In this document: positions 3,784 through 30,291 of the stretch, one piece after another
How positions within the stretch are numbered: the first letter of the stretch is position 1
Layout of the letters: each line of letters starts with the position of its first letter
IMG/VR virus record: IMGVR_UViG_3300032257_000006
Location: 1 to 64,000 of that record
From: a virus
Lineage: Duplodnaviria; Caudoviricetes
Length of the DNA stretch: 64,000 nt
Strand: one strand, 5' to 3'
The notes under the pieces: generated by a model
Told to the model about the DNA's origin: nothing
Seen by the model: the letters and a program-made list of their open reading frames with translations, nothing else
The model's database searches: none
Translations under genes and position numbers: made by a program

Positions 3784-4120
3784 CGCTTTTCTCCAAGCTG
3801 TTTACGTGATCCTCTAGTACCATACCTAAGTGATGCACAATACTGTTGGCTTCGCGGCCCGAACCATCTGGGATTATGTACTTTCCATTAGGGTCAAAAG
3901 TTTCGGACATGTCCGAAACAATATCTCTAATGTCGGCACCTAAACTAACCTGTCGTGAATAAGAAGTCATCAACGATGTCACCCACTGAAACGAGTTCAT
4001 TTCCTTACTGTTTACAAAGAAGGCTGTAGGGACAGCAGCGCCCAGTATTGTAAAGTAGATAGTCTGCTCGTCTTCTCCAGGTATTTTTATTTTGTACGTT
4101 CTACTTGGTAGTACTTCCAT
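3776..4120 (-). CDS. Stand-alone TSCPD/NrdJb-like domain protein
   Basis: Pattern LPSRTYKIK..E.TIYFTI...FFVNSK...SLMTSYSRQ...SIVHHLG resembles the C-terminal domain of class II ribonucleotide reductases. Confidence 0.6.
   Translation of the reverse strand: MEVLPSRTYKIKIPGEDEQTIYFTILGAAVPTAFFVNSKEMNSFQWVTSLMTSYSRQVSLGADIRDIVSDMSETFDPNGKYIIPDGSGREANSIVHHLGMVLEDHVNSLEKSDA
3901..3918. repeat. Palindrome copy 1 (inside a CDS)
   Basis: TTTCGGACATGTCCGAAA, perfect 18-bp palindrome. Confidence 0.85.
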
Positions 4121-4128
4121 TTCGGCTC

Positions 4129-5622
4129 CTAGTCAGGCTTCGCAATCATGTCACGAAGTAGTTCTTTATTGTCACGGTAAACTGTATTAGCTTCCTGTTC
4201 TTTGTGTAGCATCTGCTCCAAGATTTTTGTGTAACTAGTATCAATTACATCTAAGAAGTAAATATTTACTGTCTCATCTTGGCCAGCACGGTATACCCTG
4301 TCACTGCATTGCTGTACGTCACCTGGTACACCTGTTGGTTCAGCGAATAACACATTACTGCACACTCGTTGAAAATCCAACCCAGCCCCAGCAGATTTAG
4401 GATGCGCAATAAGCATGCGACAACTGGCATCTTTCTGGAACTTCGCCTTTTCTACATTGGCGTGCTTACAGTACTTACCGCCGTAAATTATCGCGGGGTT
4501 AAAATCACCGTACCTCTCATATAATTTTTCTATAGTAGAATTAAAGTGAGCAAATATTATGATCTTATTTGTCGGCGGGTTGACTGTATCGACAACCTCA
4601 TCGACAGCACTTACCCAAAGGTTTTCAATCTTTTTGTCATCAGTAAACTCCTCAGGTGTACTGACAATACGCATCAACTTCATACGAAGTGATGAATCAT
4701 TTATTGCGTCGATTATCTCCTCTTCAAGTTCTAAGATGCGCTCTCTCATCAAAGTGTCGTACAGCTTCTGGTGCTTAGGGTGTAACCACACTGGGATACG
4801 TGAGACCAGTTTAGCTGGCATGTCTAGCACTTCAGATTTAAGTACACGACGAGCTTGCAAGTACAGGCTATGATAAAGATGCTCATGGTTTTTGTAAGCC
4901 AGTATCTGCTCGTACTTTACATTAGGATTAAATACACAATGCAACATCGCAAAGTTATCCCATGAACTGTACCGACCTGGCGTAACTAATCTCACTAAAC
5001 CGTAAGCATCGCGCAAACCATTGTGAATAGGTGTGCCCGTCATAGGTAAGAAGTTAGACTCAGTTACATCGCGGCCCCCGATAAACGAGTTAACTACTGC
5101 GTGTATCTTAGAGTCAGGGTTCTTTAACGCCTGAGCTTCATCAGCAATCAGTACAGGATAATCAAACTTGAGATCTCTCCAGTGCTTTAAAAACATTTGA
5201 TATGACATTAACAGTAGGTCAGGCCAAGTATCGGTAGCCCTCCATTTAGCCAGTAAGTCACGTCGTTTCTTTGGTGTCTGATTAAATTTTTCTATTGTTA
5301 TAAAATTTTCAGCCCCTTGCAGGTTTGTCGCGAAGGTTTCACTGTACTGATTAACCAATATAGGCGGCATGATACCTACTACCTTATTGCCTAGGCCGTT
5401 TTGATAAGCAACATAAGCTTGCGATATGAGTGTCTTGCCTGTGCCTGTGTCATCGTATAGGCCGAACCTTTCCCAGTACGCTGCCTGCGATAGTCCGGTT
5501 ACTTGATGATGAAACGGGACTAGCGTGGGGTCATTATTGATGTTGATCAATACCTCGCTTGCCCATTCCGGTACGTCACCTATACCAGCTTCTTCAAAAT
5601 ACTTAGCTAGAGTCCAGCTCAT
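4129..5622 (-). CDS. SNF2-family (SF2) helicase
   Basis: DDTGTGKT (Walker A), LIADEAQ (motif II), MTGTP (III), IIFAHF (IV), SAGAGL (V), QCSDRVYRAGQ (VI). Confidence 0.9.
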   Translation of the reverse strand: MSWTLAKYFEEAGIGDVPEWASEVLININNDPTLVPFHHQVTGLSQAAYWERFGLYDDTGTGKTLISQAYVAYQNGLGNKVVGIMPPILVNQYSETFATNLQGAENFITIEKFNQTPKKRRDLLAKWRATDTWPDLLLMSYQMFLKHWRDLKFDYPVLIADEAQALKNPDSKIHAVVNSFIGGRDVTESNFLPMTGTPIHNGLRDAYGLVRLVTPGRYSSWDNFAMLHCVFNPNVKYEQILAYKNHEHLYHSLYLQARRVLKSEVLDMPAKLVSRIPVWLHPKHQKLYDTLMRERILELEEEIIDAINDSSLRMKLMRIVSTPEEFTDDKKIENLWVSAVDEVVDTVNPPTNKIIIFAHFNSTIEKLYERYGDFNPAIIYGGKYCKHANVEKAKFQKDASCRMLIAHPKSAGAGLDFQRVCSNVLFAEPTGVPGDVQQCSDRVYRAGQDETVNIYFLDVIDTSYTKILEQMLHKEQEANTVYRDNKELLRDMIAKPD

Positions 5623-8432
5623 ACGGTGGTTGCTTCTGATTGGAAATGACCGATGTCCAACCCTTTTTCTACCATCTTATCCATGTCTAAGACTTCCATC
5701 TCCCTAGCTTTAGAGAGTACTTCTGCTTTTTTACTTTCTAAGTAATAGCCTTCTTGATGCAGCAACGTCCTAAACTGGTTTACGTCAGATATAACCACAC
5801 GTTCTTGGAAAGATCTGGCATACCGTTTATACAATGCGTGCGCCATAATCAAATCAATGTACAGTTTACCTTCGGCCATGATGTAGTGCTTGCCACTTAC
5901 TATGTAAGTCTTACCGCTGCTACCGTCTTCCATACCTGCCATAAGATTAAATGCCTGCATAACTGCATCGACTTCTGTCTTACCTTTGTCTCTGCTGATA
6001 TGTTGTTCTTGCCCAGATAAGTGAGCCAGTACCGCGCCTTTAAGTTCGTTTATCTCTGCTGTCATATCCAGCTTAAGGCCTTCGAGTACTTCTTGGAAAA
6101 AATCCAATCCAGTCAGTACTACTCGGTAAGAATAATTTGAACGAGCTTCTATCTTTTTAGGGATAACATCTCGGTACTCTTTCATCTTCTTACTTGTCCA
6201 GTTCGGTAGCTTATCCAAACTAGCCCAGACCATTGCACGGGACAGTCTCCACAATTGTTTTCTGTTATCTAGTACAGTGTAGAAGTGGTCATCACAACCT
6301 ACTCTGGACTTAGTAGACATGCCGACTTGAACCATACGTTGTTTAAGTGCAGGCATCTCTGGAGACTGCTCAGACATGACAACAATTGGCCCTGATATTT
6401 TGTAGTCGATAACTCCAGCACCAGACCTGCCTTTACCGTCTGCTTTGGCTGCGCTTGTGACAGCACCTCTAGAGAAAGTCTGATTGTTCCATGCAGCTTT
6501 CATTACTTCGGCAAAATAATTGTAATTACTTTCTTTTATTTTAGATCTGTTGAACTCATCCAACAGTCTAGGGGCTGTTGTGGTCGATGCTGCGAAGTTA
6601 GCTACCGCCCAAGGTGTTGCACCTCCTAATGATATTGGAGAGTCTTCCATTATGTAATCGCAGCCTGACAAGCACGCAAATACACAAGCGGTTGTAGTCT
6701 TGCCTGACTCTGCATTGCCCCACAAATTTAAGATAGGAAACTGGTTCTCTACACTTTGTAGATGCACCTTTAAGTGACAAGCTGCATACCAGCCCAGTAT
6801 CTGTCCAACTATGTGCGGCTGATTTACTTTCAAAAGCGCCTGTATAGTTTCTTTAAATGCTGGGTCTTTCAGGTCTGGAAATTCTTGCTCCGAGATCCTT
6901 GGAGGTGCTGGTACTCTACCGTCTACGTAATGTGTATCACGTTCTTTTTGTGCAGTAACTGAGAATCCTGGCTCAACATAAACTAGCGTTGAAAGTTTCC
7001 CTACTGGATGTCTATGAATGCCAGCAGAAAATACTTGTTGGATTTCACCCATGTCAAATTCCTTAGTGAATAAATAGTGTTTAAGTCTCTGCACTTCTTG
7101 ATCTCCACCAAGAAATGCTAGATTTTTTATACCTCTAAGTTCTTTTATAAGTGAGCCTTTAGAGTCCCAAGCACTTTCCTCGATCTTGGCAGAGGCGATC
7201 TCTTTTCCTCCTACCATTATTCCTGCTTCGATACCGACACGTCGAGTCAGTTCAGTGTCTTGTGCTTTGGTGGTATAAAAATTTTCAGGCTTTATTGTGT
7301 AAGTAGTAATTCTTCGAGCACCATCTGCAGTTGCTACATAGTAACCATCTGCGCGTTCTGTGATACCGGCTAAATTGTCTTCGTCTACATCCTGTATGTC
7401 TTCCCCTTCTGCTGTCTGACATATTGGGCAACCTCCACAAGGACTTATTACAGAGAACAACGCACCTCTAGAAAACTTCCTACTACTAGACGTTGCAGCG
7501 TATCTAATCATACCTATCAGGTGTTCTACTCGATTACGTTCAGTCTTGTAGGTTCCTGATGTAACATTCTTAGCCATTTGCTCTACAATAGGCTGCCAAA
7601 AATTACGGTGCATTTTAGATCTAGCTACAAATATACCAAACTGCATAGCGGCTTGGTTAAAGTTTGATGTACCTTCGTTGGCACCTTCTTCAACCAGCTT
7701 CTGTATACAGCCTGGTAATGTCTCAGAGAACTGCGAAAGTAGCTCATCTGATACTTCAGATTCTATGTCCTGCTTTTGCTGCTTCTGTTTGAATATTACA
7801 CGCTTCTTACACAGCTCAAACAACACTGATAATTTTGTAGCTTCTTTACACGGCGTTAACTGCTCAATGTTACGAGCCTTGTCAGTGAGTCTTGTATATT
7901 CTTCTACTGTTAAGTTGTTCACCTCTTCAGGTAGTAGACCTACTTTAAATTTACCGTTGTCAGCTCGTTGTACATTTTCCTGTCGCCAGAGCCGTCCTTT
8001 CTTTCCAGAGTAGACAACCATATCGACACCATCTACAAACAGTTCGAGTGCCATTTCTTTGTAAATATAAGGCAGGTAACGTATTGCCCTACCACTGCTA
8101 AATACTTTCGAAGGTACAACTATATGAAAACCTTTCTTACCTGATGCCCAGACTAAAATATCTTGTCTGTCTACACCTTGGCCTTCTAGTTTTCCTATTA
8201 ATGTATGTAATGCTTCTATACTTTTATCGAGACGCTTGTCATAGTCAATGTCAAAGTATAGGCCGCCCTTATAAGTTATTTTATCTGGGTCACTATCGTC
8301 GTTAAAGTCATCCGATATAGCCAGTACACTAACCATCTGACACTGCTTGGCAATCAAAGCTTCTAGAGCTTCAGGTGTATCCAGAGTCATCTCCCAAGGA
8401 GATTGTTCTGCAATGCTGTAATATCTAAACAT
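5619..8432 (-). CDS. Primase-helicase (AEP-like primase N-terminus, C-terminal P-loop ATPase)
   Basis: YFDID and SGKKGFHI (AEP motifs I/II), CGGCPIC cluster, GNAESGKTT Walker A, LLDE Walker B. Confidence 0.8.
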   Translation of the reverse strand: MFRYYSIAEQSPWEMTLDTPEALEALIAKQCQMVSVLAISDDFNDDSDPDKITYKGGLYFDIDYDKRLDKSIEALHTLIGKLEGQGVDRQDILVWASGKKGFHIVVPSKVFSSGRAIRYLPYIYKEMALELFVDGVDMVVYSGKKGRLWRQENVQRADNGKFKVGLLPEEVNNLTVEEYTRLTDKARNIEQLTPCKEATKLSVLFELCKKRVIFKQKQQKQDIESEVSDELLSQFSETLPGCIQKLVEEGANEGTSNFNQAAMQFGIFVARSKMHRNFWQPIVEQMAKNVTSGTYKTERNRVEHLIGMIRYAATSSSRKFSRGALFSVISPCGGCPICQTAEGEDIQDVDEDNLAGITERADGYYVATADGARRITTYTIKPENFYTTKAQDTELTRRVGIEAGIMVGGKEIASAKIEESAWDSKGSLIKELRGIKNLAFLGGDQEVQRLKHYLFTKEFDMGEIQQVFSAGIHRHPVGKLSTLVYVEPGFSVTAQKERDTHYVDGRVPAPPRISEQEFPDLKDPAFKETIQALLKVNQPHIVGQILGWYAACHLKVHLQSVENQFPILNLWGNAESGKTTTACVFACLSGCDYIMEDSPISLGGATPWAVANFAASTTTAPRLLDEFNRSKIKESNYNYFAEVMKAAWNNQTFSRGAVTSAAKADGKGRSGAGVIDYKISGPIVVMSEQSPEMPALKQRMVQVGMSTKSRVGCDDHFYTVLDNRKQLWRLSRAMVWASLDKLPNWTSKKMKEYRDVIPKKIEARSNYSYRVVLTGLDFFQEVLEGLKLDMTAEINELKGAVLAHLSGQEQHISRDKGKTEVDAVMQAFNLMAGMEDGSSGKTYIVSGKHYIMAEGKLYIDLIMAHALYKRYARSFQERVVISDVNQFRTLLHQEGYYLESKKAEVLSKAREMEVLDMDKMVEKGLDIGHFQSEATTV

Positions 8433-8446
8433 TTACGCAACCTCCC

Positions 8447-8833
8447 CTAGCGGAATAAGTCTTTCTCTTTTGTACCATATCTCTTTTTCAGAGAACTTAA
8501 GGGGTGAACTCTTAAGTGTTCTGGGATTATGATTATAAATTCTGGTGACAATACTGGGTTTTGTTTATGTAAAGTTACTGGTATCGATAGCACCACCTTT
8601 ACTGTCCCACCATTGTTAGGTAACGTCACTAGATCTACTTCACCTAGATTACCTTCTACCTCTCTACCGCCTGGCGTACTCATTTTCCATTTTACATTTC
8701 CGTCTTTAAACTCAAATGTATCTAGCGAAAAAATAAACAGAGGTTCAACTGTACCTCCGTTAAATTTTGGATTGTTCATAACTACCATAGGCGCACCGTA
8801 CGGCAACGTCATCTTTACTTTGCGACTGCTCAT
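8447..8833 (-). CDS. Hypothetical protein
   Basis: 128-aa ORF in operon orientation. Confidence 0.7.
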   Translation of the reverse strand: MSSRKVKMTLPYGAPMVVMNNPKFNGGTVEPLFIFSLDTFEFKDGNVKWKMSTPGGREVEGNLGEVDLVTLPNNGGTVKVVLSIPVTLHKQNPVLSPEFIIIIPEHLRVHPLSSLKKRYGTKEKDLFR

Positions 8834-8844
8834 GTCAACGCCTA

Positions 8845-9156: not shown

Positions 9157-9173
9157 TTCTCCTGAATTATTTT

Positions 9174-9854
9174 TTATATTAAACTTTCGTAAATGTCTTC
9201 ATCGTCAATCAAAGCTTCTTGCAATGTTAGGATCTCTTCTACATCACAGCCTAAGATTTCAGAGGCTTCCTTTACTGACAGCAGGTTTTGCTCGTACACA
9301 AACAACTGCTCCCCTCGCTTACCTTTCATTCGGTCTTTGTTACCTATATCTACATTGCCAGGCTCATACATTCCCTTAGGAAATAGGCGGTAAGGCATCC
9401 AATAACCGTTTTCTTTAGTCGCACCTAGCTCTACCATATGCTCGTAAAAATTTTCATAAGCAGAGTAAAGGTCTAGGTCAGTGCCTAGGCCGCCCCAGTC
9501 ATTACAAACTTTGTCTGGTGTGTGCACTAACATTCTTCTGAACTGATCTCGTAGACATTCATCCATATTAACCAGTATAGAGTCTTCACCTTCTGCTACG
9601 TCACACATAGGACCTAGGCAGCCTTTGTTTTGCGACTTACGTTTCTTTATCTCTGCGTAGCTGAGTGTGACGAGACCGCCACACTTGCACTCACAGTTGT
9701 ACATTAGGAAGTTTCCAGCGTGGTTTGTTTCTAAACTCTTTATAATCAACTTGCCCAGCACATCTCCGATGTCCATAGATACTCTGGAGACTCGCTTGCT
9801 CTTTCTAGCCGCTCTAGATTTCTGCAAGTTAACTATAAATTCTACTGTACTCAC
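9174..9854 (-). CDS. Degenerate HNH-family endonuclease-like protein with a C-terminal HTH-like tail
   Basis: YNCECKCG, KVCNDW, FYEHM, YRLFPKGMYEPGNV echo the phage HNH pattern C.CdCG / vC.eW / DRId..g.Y.P.N; C-terminal LLSVKEASEILGC. Confidence 0.5.
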   Translation of the reverse strand: MSTVEFIVNLQKSRAARKSKRVSRVSMDIGDVLGKLIIKSLETNHAGNFLMYNCECKCGGLVTLSYAEIKKRKSQNKGCLGPMCDVAEGEDSILVNMDECLRDQFRRMLVHTPDKVCNDWGGLGTDLDLYSAYENFYEHMVELGATKENGYWMPYRLFPKGMYEPGNVDIGNKDRMKGKRGEQLFVYEQNLLSVKEASEILGCDVEEILTLQEALIDDEDIYESLI

Positions 9855-10099: not shown

Positions 10100-10141
10100 C
10101 TCCTATTAAAATATAGTCATTACAAATGACTGTCAATAAAT

Positions 10142-12183: not shown

Positions 12184-13572
12184 CTATGCTGGTTTAGGTA
12201 CCGCTGTTACACGGAGAATAATATCAGCGATCAGATTACCCATGCCTCGGGCACTGTTCCAGAGGCCTGACTGACCTAACAGCTGGTGAGCTGTAGTCGG
12301 TGCTACGCCTTTAACTAAGCTCTCCGGTACATCTTTCACTCTGCAGTGTTCTACAGGTGTCAGGAGACGCTCCTTGCTGTCCTCAGCACGTACTAAGAAT
12401 GGTTCAGTACTTCTGCGTTTATTGTAATGGCGTCCAATGGTGCCGCAGCTAGTTGCTTCCTCAGTTAATAATTGGCGATTAGCAAATCCCTTACCCGCCG
12501 CCTTGTCAGTTACAGCCTTGTCCTTTAGGTACTGGTTGTCAGACCACGACTTATCATCTGCTGGCACCGGCTCCAATAGTTCGCCCAGGTTGTTGTAAGT
12601 TCTGCCGTAAGTCGTTAGCTGTATGTCAGCAATATTAGCTAACGCATCGATGCCGTTAGATACTGCCAAGAACCAGTAACGCTTACGCTGCTCGAATGAT
12701 CCAGCCTGCTCATTGTCCAAGATGAACTCATGTATCGCATAGCCCATACGTTGTAGCTCTGCCTTTATCAGCATGTATGTGGCACTGCCTTGAGCCTCTA
12801 CCACGTTCTCACTGCTGATGATTGCAGGGTTTGTTGCCTTGATGGATGCCATTACTCCAAACACGGCTGTAGCGTCAGTAGGATGCTCTTCAGCTCTGCC
12901 AATTTTGTTCTTCGACTTACCAGCAATACTATGACCGGTACAAGGTAAACTGAACTGAAACACATCTACCGGAGCTAATAACTCAGGTTCCAATTCTTCT
13001 AGACTTGCTTCAAAAATTACAGTGTCGTCATCGATGGCGGTGTTGTTGTCCAAGGCTACTTGTAGGTAACTTCCATCACGATCTATGATCCACTCCAATG
13101 AAGACTCAAGGCCACCTTCAGCCATACCCTGTTTCATGGCTGCGGCAAACACCGCGGCCCCAGAACAGGCAGAACCTTCAGTTACTTTTCCGGCCTTACC
13201 ATTTTTCTTAAGACGATCTTCACGATCATTTAACTTTATGTCTTCGTGATGCATCTCAATAAGAATTGTACCATTCGTATTGAATGTAGCTTTTACTTTA
13301 CTGGCACCTTTGAATAGTTTTGTAACCGTTTCGTTACTGAAATCCAAAATTGGAATTTCCTTATCACCACGTTTACGTCCGGCCACCTTACGTTCGCCTT
13401 CTGGATCTAATCGAAGTAATATTTTCTTAGTCTCTTCATTGACCAGAACACTATAAGGCTGGTGACGTACAAACCCAATGTCCGCTAATTTTTTACCTTC
13501 AAGCCAAACACGTTTATGGCCACGGTGATCACCTAGTTTTGAATAGGTTACTTGTGCTGTTTTGTCGTTCAT
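12184..13572 (-). CDS. dcm: DNA (cytosine-5) methyltransferase with an N-terminal extension, SXT/IncC type
   Basis: ACSGAA (motif I, degenerate), SLPCTGHS (IV), SENV (VI), QRKRYW (VIII), RLLTPVEHCR (IX), LLGQS (X); N-terminal KLGDHRGHKRVWLEG. Confidence 0.9.
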   Translation of the reverse strand: MNDKTAQVTYSKLGDHRGHKRVWLEGKKLADIGFVRHQPYSVLVNEETKKILLRLDPEGERKVAGRKRGDKEIPILDFSNETVTKLFKGASKVKATFNTNGTILIEMHHEDIKLNDREDRLKKNGKAGKVTEGSACSGAAVFAAAMKQGMAEGGLESSLEWIIDRDGSYLQVALDNNTAIDDDTVIFEASLEELEPELLAPVDVFQFSLPCTGHSIAGKSKNKIGRAEEHPTDATAVFGVMASIKATNPAIISSENVVEAQGSATYMLIKAELQRMGYAIHEFILDNEQAGSFEQRKRYWFLAVSNGIDALANIADIQLTTYGRTYNNLGELLEPVPADDKSWSDNQYLKDKAVTDKAAGKGFANRQLLTEEATSCGTIGRHYNKRRSTEPFLVRAEDSKERLLTPVEHCRVKDVPESLVKGVAPTTAHQLLGQSGLWNSARGMGNLIADIILRVTAVPKPA

Positions 13573-14405: not shown

Positions 14406-14421
14406 TTCGGACAAGTCCGAA
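14406..14421. repeat. Palindrome copy 2
   Basis: TTCGGACAAGTCCGAA. Confidence 0.9.
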
Positions 14422-15455: not shown

Positions 15456-16013
15456 CTAATAAGTAAAGTTAAGGTCTTTATCTATGTTACGTACCAGCCA
15501 TCTGATCTTTTTATGTAGTTCGTTTATACCTTCATCGTTAACAATGGTGTCAGAAATAAACGCATCACTTATTCCGTTCTCGCTACTGTGGCCAGACTTG
15601 CTAATCTTTTCCATTCCTGGCCGGACTATTTTGAATACCATACCGCCTCGCTGCAGAATCATCTTGGCTTCGTTGTCGAAGCGAACATCAGTGAAAACTG
15701 TATTCTTTGACGTAGCTGCAATTCTCTGTTGCGCTCTTAATACCCACAACTCTGGGTGAACTATATCGCGGCCCCATTCAGTACCTAAGGTCTGCAATAG
15801 TTCACGGTAGGTTAAGTCTATGCCGTCTGGTCGATAACCTGCTCGCTTACCTAACTCCACAGCTTCTACAGTAGTTCCAAACATTGCAGCCAGTGCTTGG
15901 TACATTGGCATTGCGAATTTGTCTACTACAAATCCTTCGTTTACTACTAGGCAATTTCCTGCCTCATCTTTTCCGCAGCCTGCGTCACCATGTAATCCAA
16001 TTAGTTTATTCAT
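15456..16013 (-). CDS. Deoxynucleoside monophosphate kinase (T4 gp1-like)
   Basis: GLHGDAGCGKD P-loop, RELLQTLGTEWGR, DVRFDNEA, HSSENG. Confidence 0.9.
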   Translation of the reverse strand: MNKLIGLHGDAGCGKDEAGNCLVVNEGFVVDKFAMPMYQALAAMFGTTVEAVELGKRAGYRPDGIDLTYRELLQTLGTEWGRDIVHPELWVLRAQQRIAATSKNTVFTDVRFDNEAKMILQRGGMVFKIVRPGMEKISKSGHSSENGISDAFISDTIVNDEGINELHKKIRWLVRNIDKDLNFTY

Positions 16014-17550: not shown

Positions 17551-17566
17551 TTCGGACATGTCCGAA
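17551..17566. repeat. Palindrome copy 3
   Basis: TTCGGACATGTCCGAA. Confidence 0.9.
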
Positions 17567-17844: not shown

Positions 17845-18111
17845 TTAAATACAATGTCGTTCTCTAAGTTCTTCTTCGGTGTACTCTCCTTTATAGTAGT
17901 TACACCATTTACATCCCCGTTGGTGAGGAAAATACCAACCATCGCATGTACATTTTACCCGTCTCGCATACTCTCTCCTCTCTTTTTCTACACAGTGTAA
18001 ATTAGCACCGCATGCTTTACATTTAGGCTCCTTTACATATAGGTGTTTAGCCTTATTTAAAGTAACCCGCATCCTACATTTTTTACTATTGCACCTATAC
18101 CGGTTAGGCAT
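17845..18111 (-). CDS. Zn-finger-like Cys-rich protein
   Basis: CNSKKC, CKAC, CTCDGWYFPHQRGCKWC. Confidence 0.7.
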   Translation of the reverse strand: MPNRYRCNSKKCRMRVTLNKAKHLYVKEPKCKACGANLHCVEKERREYARRVKCTCDGWYFPHQRGCKWCNYYKGEYTEEELRERHCI

Positions 18112-19766: not shown

Positions 19767-19782
19767 TTCGGACATGTCCGAA
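19767..19782. repeat. Palindrome copy 4
   Basis: TTCGGACATGTCCGAA. Confidence 0.9.
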
Positions 19783-19792
19783 AGTTAATTAG

Positions 19793-19910
19793 AGCTGAGA
19801 GCTGGACTCGAACCAACGACCTCCACCTTAATAGGGTGGCGCTCTTCCCGTAGTGAGATACAGTCTTAGCAACAGTCTCACCTATTACCTCGCCTCTGAG
19901 CTATCCCAGC
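19793..19910 (-). tRNA. Atypical tRNA-like RNA: anticodon ATT, ~45-nt insertion in the D-loop, no encoded CCA
   Basis: Acceptor GCTGGGA/TCTCAGC; TA; D-stem GCTC/GAGC with a 53-nt loop; anticodon arm CCACC-CTATTAA-GGTGG; variable AGGTC; T-arm GTTGG-TTCGAGT-CCAGC. Confidence 0.75.
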
Positions 19911-19927
19911 TCTAATTAACCTTATAT

Positions 19928-20490: not shown

Positions 20491-20506
20491 TTAGGACTTG
20501 TCCGAA
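20491..20506. repeat. Palindrome copy 5
   Basis: TTAGGACTTGTCCGAA. Confidence 0.9.
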
Positions 20507-22535: not shown

Positions 22536-22551
22536 TTCGGACATGTCCGAG
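22536..22551. repeat. Palindrome copy 6
   Basis: TTCGGACATGTCCGAG. Confidence 0.9.
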
Positions 22552-22747: not shown

Positions 22748-23338
22748 TTAACTTTTGTAAAGGAAGTGAGTTCCGCCGTCATAGGCTTCCCAATAGTATC
22801 CACGCTCTTCTACAAATTTATTTAATTGGTTGTGTACCATCATGGTATACATAGTTTCGTCTGGGTCTGTCTCCCACGCATCATTACTAAATGCTTGCAT
22901 ACCCTCGATGTAGCTACCTTCGCCAGACCACACAAGTCTCCTTTGGCTATTATCAAACTCACCGCCGTCCTTAAACCAACAGCCTGGAAACGCTAATTTT
23001 AGTTCGCCCAAGATTTTCTTCTTCTCTTCCATAAAGTCTTGTTCAATAAGTCCGTCAGCTTCTACCATTTGCTCAGAGCTAACAGCTGGAACTATAAAAT
23101 CAACTGGCGTCATTCTTAATGTCATTGTGTTACTAACTTGTGTACTTTCGCACAGTTCAATAATTTCCTTAAGCGTTTCTATGTAGGTAGAAGCGTCTTC
23201 AAAATTATCTCTATACTCAGGGTCGTTAGTTAGCATAAATTCTACTGCCGTAATTTTACGGCTTTCAATTTTCTTATCTAGTCTAAGTTTAATCGTTGTC
23301 AGTAACTTAGTCTTGTAAGCTGTCTCTTGGCTACTCAT
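22748..23338 (-). CDS. Hypothetical protein
   Basis: 196 aa; RBS overlaps palindrome copy 7. Confidence 0.75.
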   Translation of the reverse strand: MSSQETAYKTKLLTTIKLRLDKKIESRKITAVEFMLTNDPEYRDNFEDASTYIETLKEIIELCESTQVSNTMTLRMTPVDFIVPAVSSEQMVEADGLIEQDFMEEKKKILGELKLAFPGCWFKDGGEFDNSQRRLVWSGEGSYIEGMQAFSNDAWETDPDETMYTMMVHNQLNKFVEERGYYWEAYDGGTHFLYKS

Positions 23339-23349
23339 GATATTTTCCT

Positions 23350-23365
23350 TTCGGACATGTCCGAA
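23350..23365. repeat. Palindrome copy 7
   Basis: TTCGGACATGTCCGAA. Confidence 0.9.
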
Positions 23366-23367
23366 TG

Positions 23368-23774: not shown

Positions 23775-23829
23775 CAGGTTTTTCCACCTCTGTGATACAG
23801 GTCTACAGAGTACTATACATAGCTGCACC

Positions 23830-24322: not shown

Positions 24323-24338
24323 GTCGTCTCCTTTAGCT

Positions 24339-24354
24339 TTCGGACATGTCCTAA
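24339..24354. repeat. Palindrome copy 8
   Basis: TTCGGACATGTCCTAA. Confidence 0.9.
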
Positions 24355-24575
24355 AGTCCCAAAACCTTTCTAGCTTTCTCATCCGACATTATATGGTCGT
24401 ACATACTGTTACACATACGTTGTCTCAAGTTGCCGCACTTAGGCTCGCTATCAACATCATAGCCATTCATTAATAAATAAAACTCAGCCAACGCGGCCTC
24501 AGTCTTAAGCGTAATAGTGACAGGTTGAAACTCTTTAGCCTGTTCTACTCTAAAATCTAAATATGTGTCAGCCAT
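24351..24575 (-). CDS. Hypothetical protein
   Basis: 74 aa; its TAG stop lies inside palindrome copy 8. Confidence 0.7.
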   Translation of the reverse strand: MADTYLDFRVEQAKEFQPVTITLKTEAALAEFYLLMNGYDVDSEPKCGNLRQRMCNSMYDHIMSDEKARKVLGL

Positions 24576-25194
24576 CTTTTCTTACTCCAGTTAGTGTATA
24601 AAGATCTGTGAACGTTTCTTCACAGTTGTTACAAAATACTTCTTGTGTGCCGATGCCAGTATCGCCGTTAAAACTACCAGCAATATCTAGCGCATTACTT
24701 TTGCAGAATGGGCAGCGGTTGCCGCCGTTGGTTACGTACTCATCCTTCATACTTTTAGTAAATACATGCTTAGCCGGTTCAATAATTTCATCCGGCTTAT
24801 ATACTTTAAGCAGTACACTAAAAATAACCTCACCATAAGGTTCAGCCATTCTCAACGCGGCTCTGTTCTTGGCCGCCATACCTTTAAGTAAATTCCTGGC
24901 CAGCTCTATATCTTTAGTAACTGAAATGCCTTGCGCTAACTCTTTCATCGCAGCTGTATCACTGTCACGCACTATCTTTTTCATAGCGTCATTTATACCG
25001 TCTCTATGTTCAGCAACACCAGCGCTAATTTTAGCGTCTACTTTATCACTCGCTCTACTCGTACAAGCTTGGCAACGTGTAACTCCGTGCTGTATACACT
25101 TAGCAGGGCCTATCTCGAATAAAAATAGTTTATTTATTTCCTTCTGCATCGGTGTGTCATACAGTTCTGGATCAATATAATTATATTCAGCCAT
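24568..25194 (-). CDS. Hypothetical protein with a C-terminal Zn ribbon
   Basis: CPFC...CNNC; also CIQH..RCQAC. Confidence 0.7.
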   Translation of the reverse strand: MAEYNYIDPELYDTPMQKEINKLFLFEIGPAKCIQHGVTRCQACTSRASDKVDAKISAGVAEHRDGINDAMKKIVRDSDTAAMKELAQGISVTKDIELARNLLKGMAAKNRAALRMAEPYGEVIFSVLLKVYKPDEIIEPAKHVFTKSMKDEYVTNGGNRCPFCKSNALDIAGSFNGDTGIGTQEVFCNNCEETFTDLYTLTGVRKDG

Positions 25195-25213
25195 TTTAAT
25201 TTGCTCCTTAGTT

Positions 25214-25229
25214 TTCGGACTTGTCCGAA
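25214..25229. repeat. Palindrome copy 9
   Basis: TTCGGACTTGTCCGAA. Confidence 0.9.
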
Positions 25230-25232
25230 TAT

Positions 25233-25751
25233 TTAATCAGGCTCACCTACAAAGTTAGCTAGAGCCAGTTCTAATGTTTCATACCTGCATTTTTGTGGTT
25301 GACGATCAAACGAACCACCGTAACTATAAGGCCAAGCGATATGGCCTTCCCAACTTAGCAGAGCCAGTACATTGTTTGGTGAATATGAAATGGTTAAGTT
25401 CTTGTCTTCTGTATTTTTTAAGCAGACGTAATAGTCTTTGTGGTGAGTTACTGTCCATTCACCTGCGGCCCCAGTTAACTTGTCACCTACTTTAAGTGCG
25501 TCTGAGTCTTCAGGTTCCATCGGTTCAATATCTTTCATCCAGCAACAATAAAAGCACGTAGTATCACCAGACCATGTATGACCTTCTTTCAGTCTGAACA
25601 TCTTACGTCCAGATTCGTGCTTTGGTTTTTCTTTCACTACTCTAGAATTCATACCTTTATTAAAAAATTCTTCGTAGCCTACATAAACACCAACACCGTG
25701 CGGTAATTTATAAGGCCGGCCCAGTTCAAGGTCAGTATATTTTATTGTCAT
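25233..25751 (-). CDS. Hypothetical protein
   Basis: Start moved to ATG 25751 after GGAG and palindrome copy 10. Confidence 0.7.
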   Translation of the reverse strand: MTIKYTDLELGRPYKLPHGVGVYVGYEEFFNKGMNSRVVKEKPKHESGRKMFRLKEGHTWSGDTTCFYCCWMKDIEPMEPEDSDALKVGDKLTGAAGEWTVTHHKDYYVCLKNTEDKNLTISYSPNNVLALLSWEGHIAWPYSYGGSFDRQPQKCRYETLELALANFVGEPD

Positions 25752-25766
25752 GATCGCTCCTATACT

Positions 25767-25782
25767 TTCGGACAAGTCCTAA
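25767..25782. repeat. Palindrome copy 10
   Basis: TTCGGACAAGTCCTAA. Confidence 0.9.
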
Positions 25783-26282
25783 AGATTTTCATACCAATCC
25801 ATGTATGTAGACTTAAGCTCCGCATCGTTATGCAAATTTTCAACCATCTCCTCTACATTCTCACAGAGATACATGATACGGATAGCGGCCCCAGTTGGTG
25901 TATTGTCAGTACGCTCCCAATCAACACCAAACAGAAAAGAAAATTGTGCGTCCGTTAAAGCAAATGTATCTTCACAATATTGAAACCAAAAGAACACTGC
26001 CATATCCTTACTCATATGATCTTTAGTAAATTCCAATCCTTTAACAAATGGCGCATGCCCTAAAGCACAACCAATAGTCCCACAATTATCTAATGATCTA
26101 AACGGCACCCCCTCCAACAAACGTCCATCAGGTTTCCTAGTTATCTGACCGTAATCAGTTGCAGCATCAACTTCATGCGCAGCATCAACTTCATGCGCTC
26201 TATATTCACGCATATCAAATTCTTCTTGTGTTACGTTGTGCATTAAATGTTGTGCTAATAATAATAAATTTTCTTTAATCAT
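25779..26282 (-). CDS. Hypothetical protein (CGTIGCALGH pattern)
   Basis: 167 aa; TAG stop inside palindrome copy 10; 18-bp tandem duplication at 26161-26198. Confidence 0.75.
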   Translation of the reverse strand: MIKENLLLLAQHLMHNVTQEEFDMREYRAHEVDAAHEVDAATDYGQITRKPDGRLLEGVPFRSLDNCGTIGCALGHAPFVKGLEFTKDHMSKDMAVFFWFQYCEDTFALTDAQFSFLFGVDWERTDNTPTGAAIRIMYLCENVEEMVENLHNDAELKSTYMDWYENL

Positions 26283-26587
26283 GATGGCTCCTTTATACTT
26301 TCAATCATCTCATTGCACTGCTCACCAATAGACTGGATAAGTTTAGCTTTAAGTAAGTTTATCTTTTCAATATTGGCCAGCTTTACATCATCTTCGTAAT
26401 AAATTTTTGCGTCTAGTTGCAAACTGTCACAGTCAACGCCGCGCATATCTGGTTCAAGTCTGAACTTACAGTCGCCTTCAAACTGAGCTGTCTGAAGACT
26501 AGTAAACTTTACTTTGCCCGTCGGTACAGGTGCGAAGATAGTACATTTGTCATAGTCATCTAAGTGGTTGCATTTTGTTTGGCTCAT
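26279..26587 (-). CDS. Hypothetical protein
   Basis: Start moved to ATG 26587 behind AAAGGA overlapping palindrome copy 11. Confidence 0.65.
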   Translation of the reverse strand: MSQTKCNHLDDYDKCTIFAPVPTGKVKFTSLQTAQFEGDCKFRLEPDMRGVDCDSLQLDAKIYYEDDVKLANIEKINLLKAKLIQSIGEQCNEMIESIKEPS

Positions 26588-26597
26588 AATTTTTCCT

Positions 26598-26613
26598 TTA
26601 GGACTTGTCCGAA
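26598..26613. repeat. Palindrome copy 11
   Basis: TTAGGACTTGTCCGAA. Confidence 0.9.
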
Positions 26614-26625
26614 ACTGTATTCCAG

Positions 26626-26814
26626 TTACATCCACATAACATCTGCATAAGCATTTCTATTAGCCGATACAGCATGTGAAAAGATTCGTTGTTTACAATG
26701 GTTAATAAGTTTAGTTACTTTATCTTGGTCACACTCTGGATAATCAAAAATAGTTGACCGCAACTTGCGCACCAATCGTTCAAGTTCTTTAGTTCTTTCA
26801 GGTGTTAAATTCAT
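26626..26814 (-). CDS. Hypothetical protein
   Basis: 62-aa ORF. Confidence 0.65.
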   Translation of the reverse strand: MNLTPERTKELERLVRKLRSTIFDYPECDQDKVTKLINHCKQRIFSHAVSANRNAYADVMWM

Positions 26815-26822
26815 AAGGTCTC

Positions 26823-27485
26823 CAGTGTAATAAGTGAATCTGTTTTAAATGTAAACAAACAGATTTAGTTATCACACTGAAAGTAAGTACTAGCTGCCAG
26901 TGTACCTAACATCATTTGTAATGCGCTGAGCTTAGCTCCTTTGCGTTGTTACAAGTGTTAGCCAGTGACTGACCCTTACTTTCAATGTAGTCACTCCTCA
27001 GACCTTTTCGGTCTAACCATAAATTACCTGCGTTGCATTATCATGTCTTACGTGCTGCACATTAAGCCAATGGGTTCCAAGTCAGTTAGTTTGCTCAGGT
27101 GTTAGTCCTATCTAGAGCCGTTGTATTATTTGAACAGCTCTCGGACATGTCCGAAAAAACTCTAACCAGTTACCGCTTATATACTCAGGGTCTTACAGTT
27201 GGTTACGAATCGCGGGTAGCAATTCATATATAGTAACCAATCAAGCCAGCACTGCTTGCAACGATCACACTCTGTGATCCGTACAGTTCTCTACAGTAAT
27301 TTGTCGAGTGAGGTCTCGGCTTGTCAGGCCGAGCACCATTTAATCTAGTTGTTAATTAGCACGTCTCTAGGACTTGCACCGGCTTGGGGCCGCTGCCGCG
27401 TTTACTCATCACCTGTACAATCTGTGATGCCTTTAGTAAGGGTCAGTTAACATATACGTTAACAACCTGGCCCTTAGTGAAAGCT
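26823..27485 (-). ncRNA. Large hairpin-dense non-coding region, candidate structured ncRNA(s)
   Basis: No ORF of 60 aa or more; at least 8 hairpins, several with minus-strand G-U pairs; 13-bp perfect long-range complement 26968-26980 / 27435-27447. Confidence 0.5.
27140..27155. repeat. Palindrome copy 12
   Basis: CTCGGACATGTCCGAA. Confidence 0.9.
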
Positions 27486-27545
27486 TCACTCAAATACAAT
27501 GCTGATGACCATCAAGGCCAGTTCAACCCAAATTAGCTCTAACAT
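27486..27545 (-). CDS. 19-aa hydrophobic peptide
   Basis: MLELIWVELALMVISIVFE behind GGAG, after palindrome copy 13. Confidence 0.45.
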   Translation of the reverse strand: MLELIWVELALMVISIVFE

Positions 27546-27576
27546 GTCGTTCTCCATAAATGCTTCTAAAATATCT

Positions 27577-27592
27577 CTCGGACAAGTCCGAA
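27577..27592. repeat. Palindrome copy 13
   Basis: CTCGGACAAGTCCGAA. Confidence 0.9.
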
Positions 27593-27642
27593 AGTTGCGT
27601 TATATCAATTAGCTATTACTAATTGAGGTAGATCAAAAAATA

Positions 27643-27831
27643 TTACAGCCTTATTAGTCCCATCAATAACAGTGTCATAATTACCGCTATGGACAGTACT
27701 AATAATAGTCGCTCTCCTAAGTATCTGAGTGAGCCACCTAAAGTACCATATTTAATACCTTCAACTATCCACTCAACTATTTTATAAATTGCAACAACTG
27801 CCAGTATAAATCCTAGTCCAGTCAAAAACAT
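27643..27831 (-). CDS. Small two-TM membrane protein
   Basis: 62 aa, two hydrophobic helices. Confidence 0.6.
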   Translation of the reverse strand: MFLTGLGFILAVVAIYKIVEWIVEGIKYGTLGGSLRYLGERLLLVLSIAVIMTLLLMGLIRL

Positions 27832-27838
27832 ATAATTC

Positions 27839-27928
27839 CTACCCTATCCACCAAACCACTGCGCTTGATACAACCAGTACTACTGTAAGCGCCACTATCA
27901 GCCTTGCTATTATCTGATCTTTATTCAT
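27839..27928 (-). CDS. 29-aa single-TM peptide
   Basis: MNKDQIIARLIVALTVVLVVSSAVVWWIG behind AAGGAGG. Confidence 0.6.
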   Translation of the reverse strand: MNKDQIIARLIVALTVVLVVSSAVVWWIG

Positions 27929-27940
27929 GACGCGGCCTCC

Positions 27941-28096
27941 TTAAGGTCTAAAGTAAGCCATTACACAAAGTACAGCTACTGCACCTAATATAATGGTCAT
28001 GTCTATTCTAAATGCCCTACGTATGCGCTGATCTTCTAGCTGTGCATCGTAGTAGCGGTAGTCTTTCTTAATCATCTGGCCGTTACGGTTAGTCAT
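27941..28096 (-). CDS. 51-aa C-terminal-TM protein, first gene after promoter P-left1
   Basis: MTNRNGQMIKKDYRYYDAQLEDQRIRRAFRIDMTIILGAVAVLCVMAYFRP behind GAGG. Confidence 0.6.
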   Translation of the reverse strand: MTNRNGQMIKKDYRYYDAQLEDQRIRRAFRIDMTIILGAVAVLCVMAYFRP

Positions 28097-28118
28097 CTCA
28101 TTTACCTCTGTCTTTAGT

Positions 28119-28134
28119 TTAGGACAAGTCCGAA
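28119..28134. repeat. Palindrome copy 14
   Basis: TTAGGACAAGTCCGAA. Confidence 0.9.
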
Positions 28135-28175
28135 AGTTTTACTGCTTCGGACGCTTTCCTCCATTTCTAGGTACC

Positions 28176-28204
28176 ATTATACACCTATTATTAGGATATG
28201 TCAA
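28176..28204 (-). promoter_or_regulatory. Consensus sigma70 promoter (P-left1) driving the early arm
   Basis: TTGACA-N17-TATAAT, a perfect match. Confidence 0.9.
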
Positions 28205-28211
28205 TACCTCA

Positions 28212-28660
28212 GTATTAGAGTATTGGAGTATTAAGGTTTGAATGTGTTTGTACAGTTTTTGTGTTTTTGAGTGGTTTGTATAGTCAGGTCGTCACCTTAA
28301 AATATTAGCGTATTAGAGTATTTAGGCTTATTTTATTTGATATGCATGAGGTGTGCCAGAATTCTGTTTACACGTTTCCGTTCATCTCTTTTATTGATGG
28401 TGATGACTAACGGTAACGTGTCCTCTTTTTGGTTTAATATGTCCGCGATAATATTAGAGTATCTATGTATGCCCTGTTTTTTAGGTGGCGGTGGTATTTT
28501 AGGTTTTGTGTGGCGTCCTTATAGTATCGGTGATTGTGTGAGGTGTACCTGTGTGGCGGTTTCAACGCGGCCCCCGTATTTTTGAGGGTTCGTTTTCCTC
28601 CTTTACATTAAAAAACGTTTTTCAAAAAACACCTAGTCTCAGACAAATAATATTAGAGTA
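28212..28660 (+). repeat. TATTRGMGTA direct repeats (iteron-like)
   Basis: Copies at 28213, 28221, 28303, 28311, 28452, 28651; an inverted copy at 30216-30225. Confidence 0.65.
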
Positions 28661-29219
28661 ACCCTATATTACACAGTAATTTTTTAAAGAAGCCGAAAAA
28701 GAAGACCCTATGTCGCTAAAAAGTTGTTTGTCAGAACGCGGGGGCTTGTTCCGAAATTTAGCTGATTTGGAAGTCTACCCCCCTTCACCTAGGGCGAGCT
28801 AAATGCCCAATGTAGGATACACCCTTACTTATATATAATAATAAAAAAAATAATTTAATATTATATATATAGACATGCTGCGCATGCTGTGAGAACTGTA
28901 GATAGCCCTGAAAGCCCGCCACAGCAGCCTCTCAGCCCTCTGGGGCCGCGTCCTTACTTACAACCCATTGTGCTAACTGTTTGATTTACTTAGATATTTA
29001 AAATGGCGAGATCTGCCAGACTGGGGCCGCGGCCCTAATTTTATTCACGGCCAGGTTTTGCTCAGGGATTTTAATCTTACGGTTACACTGGGGCGGCGAT
29101 GTGGAAGTGAACGCGGCCCTAATAAAAGTTAAAAAGGATTTTTCCTTAGGGGATTTCCAATTAACCATTATTAAAAAATATATATAGGGCGGCGGCGAAA
29201 ATCACAAAATCCAGACGTC

Positions 29220-29253
29220 AAAAAGCCCGCTTTAAAAAGCAGGCTTTATTTTC
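29220..29253. terminator. Bidirectional terminator-like hairpin
   Basis: AAAAGCCCGCT...AGCAGGCTTT flanked by A and T runs. Confidence 0.55.
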
Positions 29254-29261
29254 GTTTTATT

Positions 29262-29277
29262 TTCGGATAAGTCCGAA
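29262..29277. repeat. Palindrome copy 15
   Basis: TTCGGATAAGTCCGAA. Confidence 0.85.
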
Positions 29278-29467
29278 AGTTTAGACTTCTGAAAATTCCT
29301 TCAATTGTACAGGGGCGGGCAAATTCTGATTAGCCATACTGGCAACAAGGGCGGCGAGTGCCTCGTGTTTTCCAGCGCCGCTAGAATAAAAAACTTGTGT
29401 ATGCTTTGAGAATTTAAAAACGATTTTAAATAACTTCATATCTTGCACCTTGAATTAGTCAGTAGAT

Positions 29468-29488
29468 AGGGGCGGCATTGCCGCCCCT
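29468..29488. other. 10-bp perfect inverted repeat just after the solo gene
   Basis: AGGGGCGGCA-T-TGCCGCCCCT; no U-tract. Confidence 0.6.
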
Positions 29489-29496
29489 GTTGTGGT

Positions 29497-30129
29497 TTAC
29501 GCCGCTTTTGTGCGTTGCTTAGCTACCGCATCAACCGCACTAGCTAAAACCGCTTGTAAGCTCTTAAGCTCAGCCATTGCACCTACTGTTTCAAGGTCTG
29601 CTATTAAGGCACTGATTTTGTCGAATGTTTGAGCCGTATCCATTAGGCCTGATTCAGAAGCCGCCGCCGGTGCCGTTTCATCAGCCGGAGCCGCCGCCGG
29701 TGCCATTGCGCCGAACTCAAGTAAACCGTCTTTTAGGGTCGCTTTGATATCCACAAGAGCATAGGCTCTAACAACGGCTTTGCGTGCCGCGTCCCAGTTT
29801 TTACATTCTGCTTTGCTTTTCTCGCTGTTGTACTGAGTAGAGATAGCCGCTTTTAGTTCTTTGCCTGTAAGCTTGCCCGCTTTTGTTAACGCCGTAGTGA
29901 TTTTATTTTTTAACGCCTTATTCGTTTTGTCATTAGTTACGCGGTGCGCCTCTTTTTCATTATAAAACTCTGTGATTATGCCTTGCACGCTTTGAACGTC
30001 GTCGGCCTGAATAAATGCATTTAGACCAGTCGCTATCTTTACGCCGTTCTTAACACTTGAGCGGATAGCCGTAACGATTGCTTTTTGTTCAGTTGATAGA
30101 GTAGCGATAGTTGTATTTTGAGTAGTCAT
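29497..30129 (-). CDS. Solo Ala/Lys-rich helical protein with its own promoter
   Basis: Start moved to ATG 30129 (MTTQNTT); 210 aa; AT/GCT/AAA codon style differs from the other genes. Confidence 0.75.
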   Translation of the reverse strand: MTTQNTTIATLSTEQKAIVTAIRSSVKNGVKIATGLNAFIQADDVQSVQGIITEFYNEKEAHRVTNDKTNKALKNKITTALTKAGKLTGKELKAAISTQYNSEKSKAECKNWDAARKAVVRAYALVDIKATLKDGLLEFGAMAPAAAPADETAPAAASESGLMDTAQTFDKISALIADLETVGAMAELKSLQAVLASAVDAVAKQRTKAA

Positions 30130-30187
30130 GATATATAAGCCTTTTATAATATGGGGGTAGCAGATTTGCGCCTCTTCCATGTGTCTA

Positions 30188-30215
30188 ATAATACGCCTAT
30201 TAATTAATAATGCAA
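30188..30215 (-). promoter_or_regulatory. sigma70-like promoter (P-left2)
   Basis: TTGCAT-N16-TATTAT; flanks (GTATTG...TAATAGG.GTAT) resemble P-left1. Confidence 0.6.
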
Positions 30216-30275
30216 TACTCCAATAGTAAAATAATTAAATATTTTTAAATTAGTTTAACTTTATTTATTCTGACT

Positions 30276-30291
30276 TTCGGATAAGTCCGAA
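30276..30291. repeat. Palindrome copy 16
   Basis: TTCGGATAAGTCCGAA. Confidence 0.85.

Follow-up and report, generated by a model that had tools for sequence, protein, structure and literature searches.

Dispersed palindromes of invariant sequence have already been described in lytic phages, for example in Cluster O, and have never been explained. In the Cluster O mycobacteriophages (Corndog and relatives), a 17-bp dyad repeat, TGTTCGG-NNN-CCGAACA, is present in 34 copies; the authors predict a dimeric DNA-binding protein and leave the function of the repeat unexplained (PMC4351075). The promoter-early stem-loop (PeSL) cassettes of T4-type phages consist of strong sigma-70 promoters combined with terminating stem-loops (Arbiol et al. 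2010, PMC2839356). These two systems are the closest descriptions to the element analyzed here, a 16-bp palindrome repeated through the early region of a virus of the Caudoviricetes, IMG/VR record IMGVR_UViG_3300032257_000006 (78,952 b; g0 below), the first 64 kb of which constitute the window. A preliminary description of the window had listed sixteen copies and proposed for them an operator or roadblock for a dimeric protein, an mRNA hairpin or, ranked last, a recombination site.

Sites were defined as sequences with at most one mismatch to TTCGGAC-WW-GTCCGAA, the chance expectation being taken from shuffles. Sixteen are found in the window against 0.00-0.01 expected, each at the place given in the preliminary description except the first, which starts at 3902 instead of 3901. 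Two further perfect copies lie outside the window in the same minus-strand arm (70150 and 75176 of the full record), bringing the total in the 78.7-kb genome to 18. All are located in the leftward early/replication arm (P(18/18) = 1.3e-5) and 16 of the 18 are non-coding (p about 5e-12), while the structural arm is free of copies, as had been claimed, the only match there (47736) having three mismatches. The minus strand is the sense strand of all early-arm genes that flank palindromes, and on it the described layout of stop, palindrome, ribosome-binding site (RBS) and start is borne out: 11 of 18 copies have the end of the upstream stop at -4 to +12 nt from the palindrome, and 12 of 18 have a start codon 9-22 nt past it, with a Shine-Dalgarno (SD) sequence of AGGAG type between. 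The spacing is 437-1143 b across 30.3-22.5 kb and 2-10 kb beyond, narrowing in the direction first reported, so that the palindromes appear to become denser toward the genome end at which the early arm begins. The centre consists only of A/T (WW in 18/18), also as reported, with AA and TT equally frequent on the sense strand and hence no orientation bias relative to transcription. The GGAC/GTCC cores and the TT/AA ends are intact in 14 of 18 copies, variation being mostly confined to position 3/14 and the centre. The feature is clearly real, conserved and selected.

Absence from relatives had been named beforehand as an observation that would count against the feature; copies are in fact present in G001, G002, several Vibrio phages and G004. 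The only close relative, G001 (IMGVR_UViG_3300032212_000003, 75,632 b), is collinear with g0 at ~70% nucleotide identity and carries ~19 copies, the centre being 2 nt long in 13 and 3 nt long in 6; all lie in that same arm, and several are orthologous to those of g0. In the partial genome G002, the capsid, portal and terminase proteins of which are 37-45% identical to those of g0, the identical 16-mer occurs three times, together with a doubly changed yet palindromic version. The same junction layout, with other palindromes, is displayed by relatives further removed, whose primase and terminase are 30-40% identical. TTGGTCT-N-AGACCAA is present in 14 copies in SHOU24, 13 in vB_VpaP_1601 (1601 below) and 38-39 in 264E42.1, K478b and 51E28.1, nearly all within the early/replication arm of these Vibrio phages, and TGTACTC-NNN-GAGTACA in 14 copies in the uncultured G004, where it is denser toward the contig end. 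The palindrome sequence appears to outlast the proteins, as illustrated by the 16-mer of g0 and G002 and by the 15-mer common to SHOU24 and 264E42.1, although only 7.6 kb of the latter two genomes aligns (megablast). One in-gene copy is kept at synonymous sites in Vibrio phages (SHOU24 36676 = 264E42.1 28907). No palindrome of such kind was found in three other relatives, including G003. The last repeats ACTTGTT(G/T)ACA ~13 times, several of these forming the -35 region of a sigma-70-type promoter that carries a conserved upstream extension. Pattern scans of viral and metagenome sequences returned several copies only in G001 and G002, and the other 21 metagenome loci have no protein in common with g0; single chance matches dominated the results obtained with the Vibrio 15-mer. 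In the small part covered of the literature citing SHOU24, no mention of these palindromes was found.

The resemblance to Cluster O is considerable. Both concern a non-temperate siphovirus of ~70-80 kb in which invariant 7-bp inverted arms enclose a variable short centre, and in both there are tens of copies (18 in g0) that are denser to one genome end, many of them intergenic and some within genes, without orientation bias and mostly away from promoters. By contrast, the copies in g0 are tied to the gap between stop and RBS, 12 of 18 lying near a start, while those of Cluster O are not linked to starts. They are also limited to one arm, with none in the 36.5-kb structural arm, and cassette indels occur at the repeats in relatives of g0, whereas few if any Cluster O rearrangements involve the repeats. 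There is no relationship between the hosts or between the phage lineages, and the repeats differ in sequence.

The setting of the palindromes can be specified from the genome. The record ends share an identical 241-b overlap (window 1-241 and genome 78712-78952), indicating that the contig is a circular assembly with a unit of 78,711 b. The minus-strand arm extends from ~30.5 kb down to 1 and continues from 78.7 to 67.1 kb, and contains ORFans, two DNA methylases, a primase-helicase, an SNF2 helicase, a PolA-type polymerase, a ligase, SbcCD-like nucleases and nucleotide-metabolism genes; the polymerase gene at 1-2574 runs on at 77683-78711, for ~1200 aa in total. The plus-strand structural arm (30.6-67.1 kb, 36.5 kb) holds terminase, capsid, tail tube and tape-measure genes, and with tail tube and tape-measure genes present g0 is a siphovirus. 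The ends of G001, which are 127-b direct terminal repeats, correspond to ~30.4-30.6 kb of g0, indicating that both arms begin at physical ends and converge. Among the g0 genes searched there was no match to an RNA polymerase family, and the largest ORFs (1815, 1237 and 1133 aa) are tail-module proteins, none of them matching such a family. No integrase, repressor or partition family was recognized among the genes searched, many of which are ORFans that carry no assignment, and the family searches of g0 genes gave neither a Y1 transposase nor a tyrosine recombinase.

Two promoter-like sites stand at the start of the early arm, both on the minus strand. The first, TTGCAT-16-TATTAT (30188..30215), is read from sequence before the first early gene (29497-30129), and its -35 hexamer is kept in G001. 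The second (28176..28204) is the strong promoter near 28.2 kb that had been pointed out previously, and proves to be a perfect sigma-70 consensus, TTGACA-17-TATAAT; together with its leader and copy 14 it forms one block kept in G001 (80.6% identity). This leader (window 28140-28170, minus strand) holds a conserved GAAATGGAGGAAAGC segment, which starts a 15-codon mini-ORF closing at the TAA of copy 14, of 6 codons in G001. A C-rich, G-poor or simple-repeat GC-rich tract adjoins the inferred physical end in three related phages (window 30295-30350; L044 15465-15530; G002 24550-24650), and in each is followed by a palindrome copy; such a tract could be a packaging, end or Rho-loading signal.

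We tentatively prefer to regard the palindrome as a duplex site for a dimeric DNA-binding factor, a reading drawn from sequence comparison and held with slightly more doubt than belief. The 16-bp palindrome would then be a sequence-specific recognition site set at early/middle gene junctions, the double-stranded form of which is read by a dimeric protein; this may be phage-encoded or a host protein common to the phages of one host group. The dimer would contact two 7-bp half-sites (TTNGGAC), leaving the A/T centre between them uncontacted. A few promoters of host type, situated near the genome end, would drive the 42-kb leftward arm, the phage having no RNA polymerase of its own, and with so few promoters for the whole arm, an array of bound dimers downstream of them and between cistrons would act as roadblocks or silencers. 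Such an array might time or shut off early transcription. A minority of copies overlaps a -35 box (g0 27140, G001 72097 and SHOU24 15303, the last preceding a gene annotated helix-turn-helix), and these would be ordinary operators. As a side effect, seen in the genomes compared, the repeated site, often with its RBS leader, is a seam for the gain, loss and exchange of cassettes between related phages.

The pattern of variation bears on this reading. In operators the arms are invariant and the centre is free, whereas in protein-bound RNA hairpins the loops are conserved and the stems covary. Position 3/14 is mismatched without compensation in 12 of the ~35 copies of g0 and G001 combined, the pairs seen being C.U, A.G, C.C, C.A and U.C, and the variant half-site TTAGGAC is found on either arm. 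Any base occurs at the centre in the Vibrio phages (39/39, 38/38 and 14/14 copies), and in G004 the central 3 nt vary while the arms are perfect in 14/14. The length of the centre is constant within each genome except G001 (2 nt in 18/18, 1 nt in 39/39, 3 nt in 14/14), and flank covariation is absent from g0, G001, 264E42.1, K478b and SHOU24. Invariant arms, a free centre, uncompensated mismatches and flanks without covariation fit a site for a dimeric DNA-binding factor. The argument from uncompensated change, on which an operator or roadblock had first been favoured, therefore holds and is strengthened, while no protein that would bind was found.

Alternatively, the palindrome may act in the mRNA, as a 6-7-bp hairpin after each stop and 5' of each RBS that is either bound by a factor (a repressor resembling T4 RegA or MS2 coat protein, or a processing nuclease) or insulates or stabilizes each cistron; this we consider unlikely, though by no means far-fetched. 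Placement speaks for it, since 12 of 18 copies end 9-22 nt before a start, 11 of 18 begin -4 to +12 nt from a stop and every copy lies in one transcription arm. For perfect copies the folding energy is -6.1 to -8.5 kcal/mol (z about -2 to -3.7), but a third of the copies carry an uncompensated internal mismatch, and a mismatch at position 3/14 reduces the -6.1 kcal/mol predicted for the hairpin to a value between -1.6 and -4; such hairpins are too weak alone to stop exonucleases. Invariant stems with variable loops are the opposite of known protein-hairpin recognition, imperfect stem variants on the sense strand are too few to show a bias of G.U over C.A, and the five genomes named above lack flank covariation. 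Nevertheless, imperfect cores have more flanking pairs, some copies in G004 possess long complementary extensions (p = 0.03), one copy in G002 displays a compensated double change, and 2-nt and 3-nt centres are both tolerated in G001. tRNA-like elements adjoin copies, and the AC|UUU at the 5' edge of the palindrome fits the preference of RNase E. Copies inside genes, a conserved copy upstream of the first early promoter and the lack of an Rfam match at gathering thresholds tell against a role in mRNA. The hairpin proposed in the preliminary description is thus weakened by the uncompensated mismatches, with the qualification that one relative, G001, mixes centres of two lengths.

Several observations weigh against the dimeric DNA-binding factor. 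The mixture of 2-nt (13) and 3-nt (6) centres in G001 should not be tolerated by a rigid dimer, and the position of most copies, tied to the gap between stop and RBS on the sense strand, is that expected of an mRNA element. There is a tendency for imperfect cores to have 1-2 extra flanking pairs (Fisher p = 0.019), and two copies in G002 cap longer terminator hairpins, one of them doubly compensated. With no integrase or repressor family found among the genes searched, a repressor-type roadblock would have no obvious lysogenic role; no integrase is annotated in SHOU24 either. No DNA-binding domain was detected in 47 small ORFs searched against Pfam, PHROGs and NCBIfam, and two AlphaFold models, at pLDDT 34 and 38, were too poor for use.

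The wider search for a factor gave the following picture. No RNA-binding family was detected in the same 47 ORFs with the same three libraries, and PDB sequence searches gave no match. In presence/absence profiling across seven genomes, dNMP kinase was the only protein singled out. Iterative searches (jackhmmer) from three SHOU24 proteins annotated DNA-binding or regulatory yielded no homologue in g0, and only one of the three queries, SHOU24_11, gave a weak PadR-like Pfam signal (E = 0.044); nothing was found by phmmer with the early proteins of G002. Three leads may be named as candidates. The first is a fold predicted to resemble SymE/AbrB at the N-terminus of the C5 cytosine methylase 12184-13572 (minus strand). 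This methylase has an extra N-terminal domain of ~125 aa, the model of which (Atlas) can be superposed both on the N-termini of other methylases and on small viral proteins that stand alone; in one cluster of those small viral proteins, SymE_toxin is assigned to 13% of members. Homologues of the C5 methylase at 55-78% identity occur in other samples, and four methyltransferase homologues were found at 55-64% identity. The second lead is a NUMOD/HTH-like resemblance in the product of 9174-9854, and the third a cysteine-rich basic protein of 88 aa at 17845-18111. g0 also encodes a thymidylate-synthase-like enzyme, dCTP deaminase, MazG pyrophosphatase and dNMP kinase (genome 67.9-77 kb; window 15456-16013), a set typical of phages with a replaced or modified DNA base. 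Base modification, if present, would affect any protein that reads the palindrome.

The identity of the palindrome in separate lineages could also be explained if it were a copy of a host-regulator operator or a promoter element, the left arm approximating a -35 box, by which early genes are wired to host control or transcripts are started. In agreement with this, the distant phages g0 and G002 have one 16-mer in common, and one 15-mer is found in Vibrio phages that infect two host species. The promoter-like CGGACA-17-AATAAT at 27140, TTGGTC-18-TATAAA in SHOU24, and the repeated ACTTGTTGACA promoters that the sister lineage G003 has in place of palindromes agree with it as well. We nevertheless judge it very improbable. 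When 185,579 species genomes were scanned, the matches listed were scattered singles in many phyla with no candidate regulon; the 9-22 nt that separate most copies from the start codon include the SD and leave no room for a -10 box and start site; and a palindrome would fire both ways. On the sequence itself, the left arm with AGGAGAAT as a promoter of leaderless mRNAs was ruled out by spacing. Hairpin promoters of the N4 type, or others served by a phage RNA polymerase, were also ruled out, as g0 is a siphovirus without a match to the polymerase family.

Comparison of related genomes indicates that the palindromes coincide with the edges of exchanged segments. It had been recommended at the outset that gain/loss breakpoints be compared with the motif, and in the closest Vibrio-phage pairs they are enriched there at p about 0.01: 5 of 31 breakpoints lie within 30 nt of a palindrome in one pair against 1.3 expected (p = 0.009), and 2 of 12 in the second against 0.16 expected (p = 0.011), whereas enrichment is absent in more distant pairs (p = 0.30). 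SHOU24 26540-27295, which holds a methyltransferase gene between two palindromes, is missing in 1601, where exactly one palindrome remains; 264E42.1 65900-66679 (779 b, again between two palindromes) is missing in 51E28.1, with a single palindrome instead. The early regions of g0 and G001 form a mosaic in which most ORFans are unshared, and variable segments end at palindromes (28119|27577, 25767, 25214|23350), a comparison that reveals only coarse agreement of boundaries. Modules of palindrome plus leader, 41-48 bp long, are 88-93% identical between non-orthologous junctions in g0 and G001, and the module stands at different junctions around the same genes in the two. Through the exact Vibrio-phage indels and the palindrome-bounded segments of g0 and G001, the recombination idea, placed last of three in the preliminary description, gains real support and is the only one with direct comparative support. 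The palindromes are thus real seams of cassette exchange, whether this is what they are selected for or a by-product.

It could even be supposed that no trans-acting factor exists, and that palindrome and RBS leader together are a linker for homologous or microhomology exchange of early cassettes in a pool of co-infecting phages, uniformity being kept by exchange (concerted evolution) and any hairpin effect being secondary. The exact indels of both Vibrio pairs, the breakpoint excess, the bounded segments of g0 and G001 and the 41-48-bp modules at shifting junctions would all follow. We regard a role limited to exchange as improbable, however: the majority of breakpoints lie away from palindromes and distant pairs are not enriched, while a recombination linker needs neither dyad symmetry nor a fixed centre length nor W-only centres. 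Sequences of 15-16 bp are short for efficient homologous exchange. In-gene copies kept at synonymous sites and copies beside promoters or terminators suggest another selected role.

The likeness to PeSL cassettes lies in this behaviour. In both cases short conserved regulatory units stand between small non-essential early genes in plastic regions, and copy-to-copy recombination gives indels or replacements in close relatives, here SHOU24/1601 and 264E42.1/51E28.1; the unit of promoter 28204-28176, leader and copy 14 is kept as a block whose homology breaks off just past the palindrome. Unlike PeSL, a promoter-like site accompanies only 2-3 of the 18 copies, reaching consensus only at 28204-28176 and being weaker near 27140 and 30276. 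The palindrome itself is followed by no T-run and so, as far as sequence can tell, does not qualify as a terminator, separate terminator-like hairpins being present beside copies 6 and 15. In place of a cassette of 50-60 bp, the conserved core is a fixed 16-bp perfect palindrome.

Other multi-copy elements of phages are more remote. The conserved inverted repeats (CIRs) of phiC31 and the L5-type stoperators are repressor-bound multi-copy sites of temperate actinophages, at which the bound protein blocks transcription away from promoters. They resemble the present element as one short site in 15-30 copies within short intergenic gaps of transcribed arms, but belong to temperate phages that encode a repressor, whereas the g0 genes searched gave no integrase, repressor or partition gene; stoperators are moreover asymmetric and oriented with transcription, while the g0 site is palindromic. 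In Cluster K mycobacteriophages, the start-associated sequences (SAS) are 13-mers without symmetry, and the ribosome-binding region forms part of them; like them, the palindrome is a conserved short motif right upstream of start codons in a subset of genes, except that a separate, ordinary AGGAG-type SD follows it in g0. The T7 RNase III sites are irregular stems of ~20 bp or more that are not sequence-identical, and the N4 hairpin promoters need the virion RNA polymerase. In both, as here, hairpin-forming sequences stand between or before early genes of lytic phages; the g0 stem of 6-7 bp, to which flanks add at most 2 pairs, departs from the former, and the lack of an RNA polymerase family match in g0 from the latter. 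REP elements and integron attC sites differ in that no RAYT transposase or integron integrase family appeared in any g0 search. Stoperators are discussed, and SAS mentioned, in PMC4351075.

The individual copies in the window, all on the minus strand, are described in the order in which the early arm is read. Copy 16 (30276..30291), with G-to-A at position 10, lies ~60 nt upstream of the first early promoter and adjoins the C-rich tract and the inferred genome end; it is kept in G001 (75446), and a like-placed copy is present in G002 (24697). Copy 15 (29262..29277) begins 3 nt past a stop, and a terminator-like hairpin with T-run comes no more than ~15 nt after it, an arrangement repeated in G001 (74377). 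Copy 14 (28119..28134) is situated in a 5' leader; the -10 of the strong promoter lies ~42 nt before it and a start codon 22 nt after it, and homology to G001 stops 7 nt past the palindrome. The site in G001 orthologous to copy 13 (27577..27592) has a 3-nt centre (73014). Copy 12 (27140..27155) lies within a non-coding stretch of ~830 nt kept in G001, and its left arm forms the -35-like CGGACA, 17 nt before a conserved AATAAT. This stretch (window 26815-27640) lacks a credible ORF, contains copies 12 and 13 and is 68% identical in G001; strongly conserved blocks around copy 12 include ATATAAGCGGTA and TAGATAGGACTAAC, and the stretch may be a non-coding RNA or regulatory region.

Further along the arm, copy 11 (26598..26613) has G-to-T at position 14 and stands 10 nt before a start codon. 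In copies 10 (25767..25782) and 8 (24339..24354) the C-to-A change creates the TAG stop of the upstream gene, and in copy 5 (20491..20506), 9 nt before a GTG start, the 3' arm overlaps the Shine-Dalgarno, the two stops and the overlap having been correctly noted before. Copy 10 also marks the edge of a segment absent from G001, as does the perfect copy 7 (23350..23365), located 11 nt before gene 22748-23338; at copy 9 (25214..25229), likewise perfect, G001 homology ends 9 nt away. Copy 6 (22536..22551) stands directly 3' of a terminator-like hairpin (22587-22560), with a start codon 20 nt further on. Copy 4 (19767..19782), kept in G001 (62802), directly follows a degenerate tRNA-like element (19784-19926, minus strand), which scores 27.7 bits for Rfam tRNA against a threshold of 29 bits and is not called by ARAGORN. 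It has 75% identity in G001 (62779-62959), where intact tRNA genes for Met and Arg lie just upstream (63162-63319). Copy 3 (17551..17566), kept in G001 (58915), shares with copy 4 a stop-palindrome-RBS module of 34 nt; the longer unit reported at 17.55 and 19.77 kb is thus identical over that length and diverges after it. Copy 2 (14406..14421) is perfect, 2 nt past a stop and 21 nt before a start codon.

Copy 1 (3902..3917) is inside a 114-aa gene (3776-4120), where it codes S-D-M-S-E, and the next start codon is 118 nt downstream. It is retained letter for letter in G001 (48310) though the flanking synonymous sites differ. The in-gene copies of g0/G001 and of G002 (23803) share a reading frame, V-S-D-M-S-E-T-F, the G002 copy lying in a 268-aa protein apparently unrelated to that of g0/G001.

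As described above, one gene-junction layout recurs with at least three palindrome spellings across marine siphoviruses of ~67-85 kb, a group that includes the cultured Vibrio phages SHOU24, vB_VpaP_1601, 264E42.1, K478b and 51E28.1, with up to ~39 copies each. The junctions might be taken further, as a dedicated and hitherto undescribed punctuation system widespread in a large group of marine siphoviruses, in which a lineage-specific factor recognizes a hairpin, in RNA or extruded DNA, at each early cistron boundary, controls or processes the cistrons, and catalyzes or favours the capture and loss of cassettes. This is quite improbable in our estimation; if true, phages would have a functional equivalent of an integron-like platform for gene cassettes that dispenses with an integrase. 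Since cultured Vibrio phages carry the palindromes, the question is directly testable in a tractable host. A factor, if found, would be a new regulator that acts globally on early expression in phages. The exact seams between cassettes provide a concrete mechanism for the swapping of accessory genes such as methyltransferases, which bears on the evolution of host range and defence evasion in natural Vibrio-phage populations.

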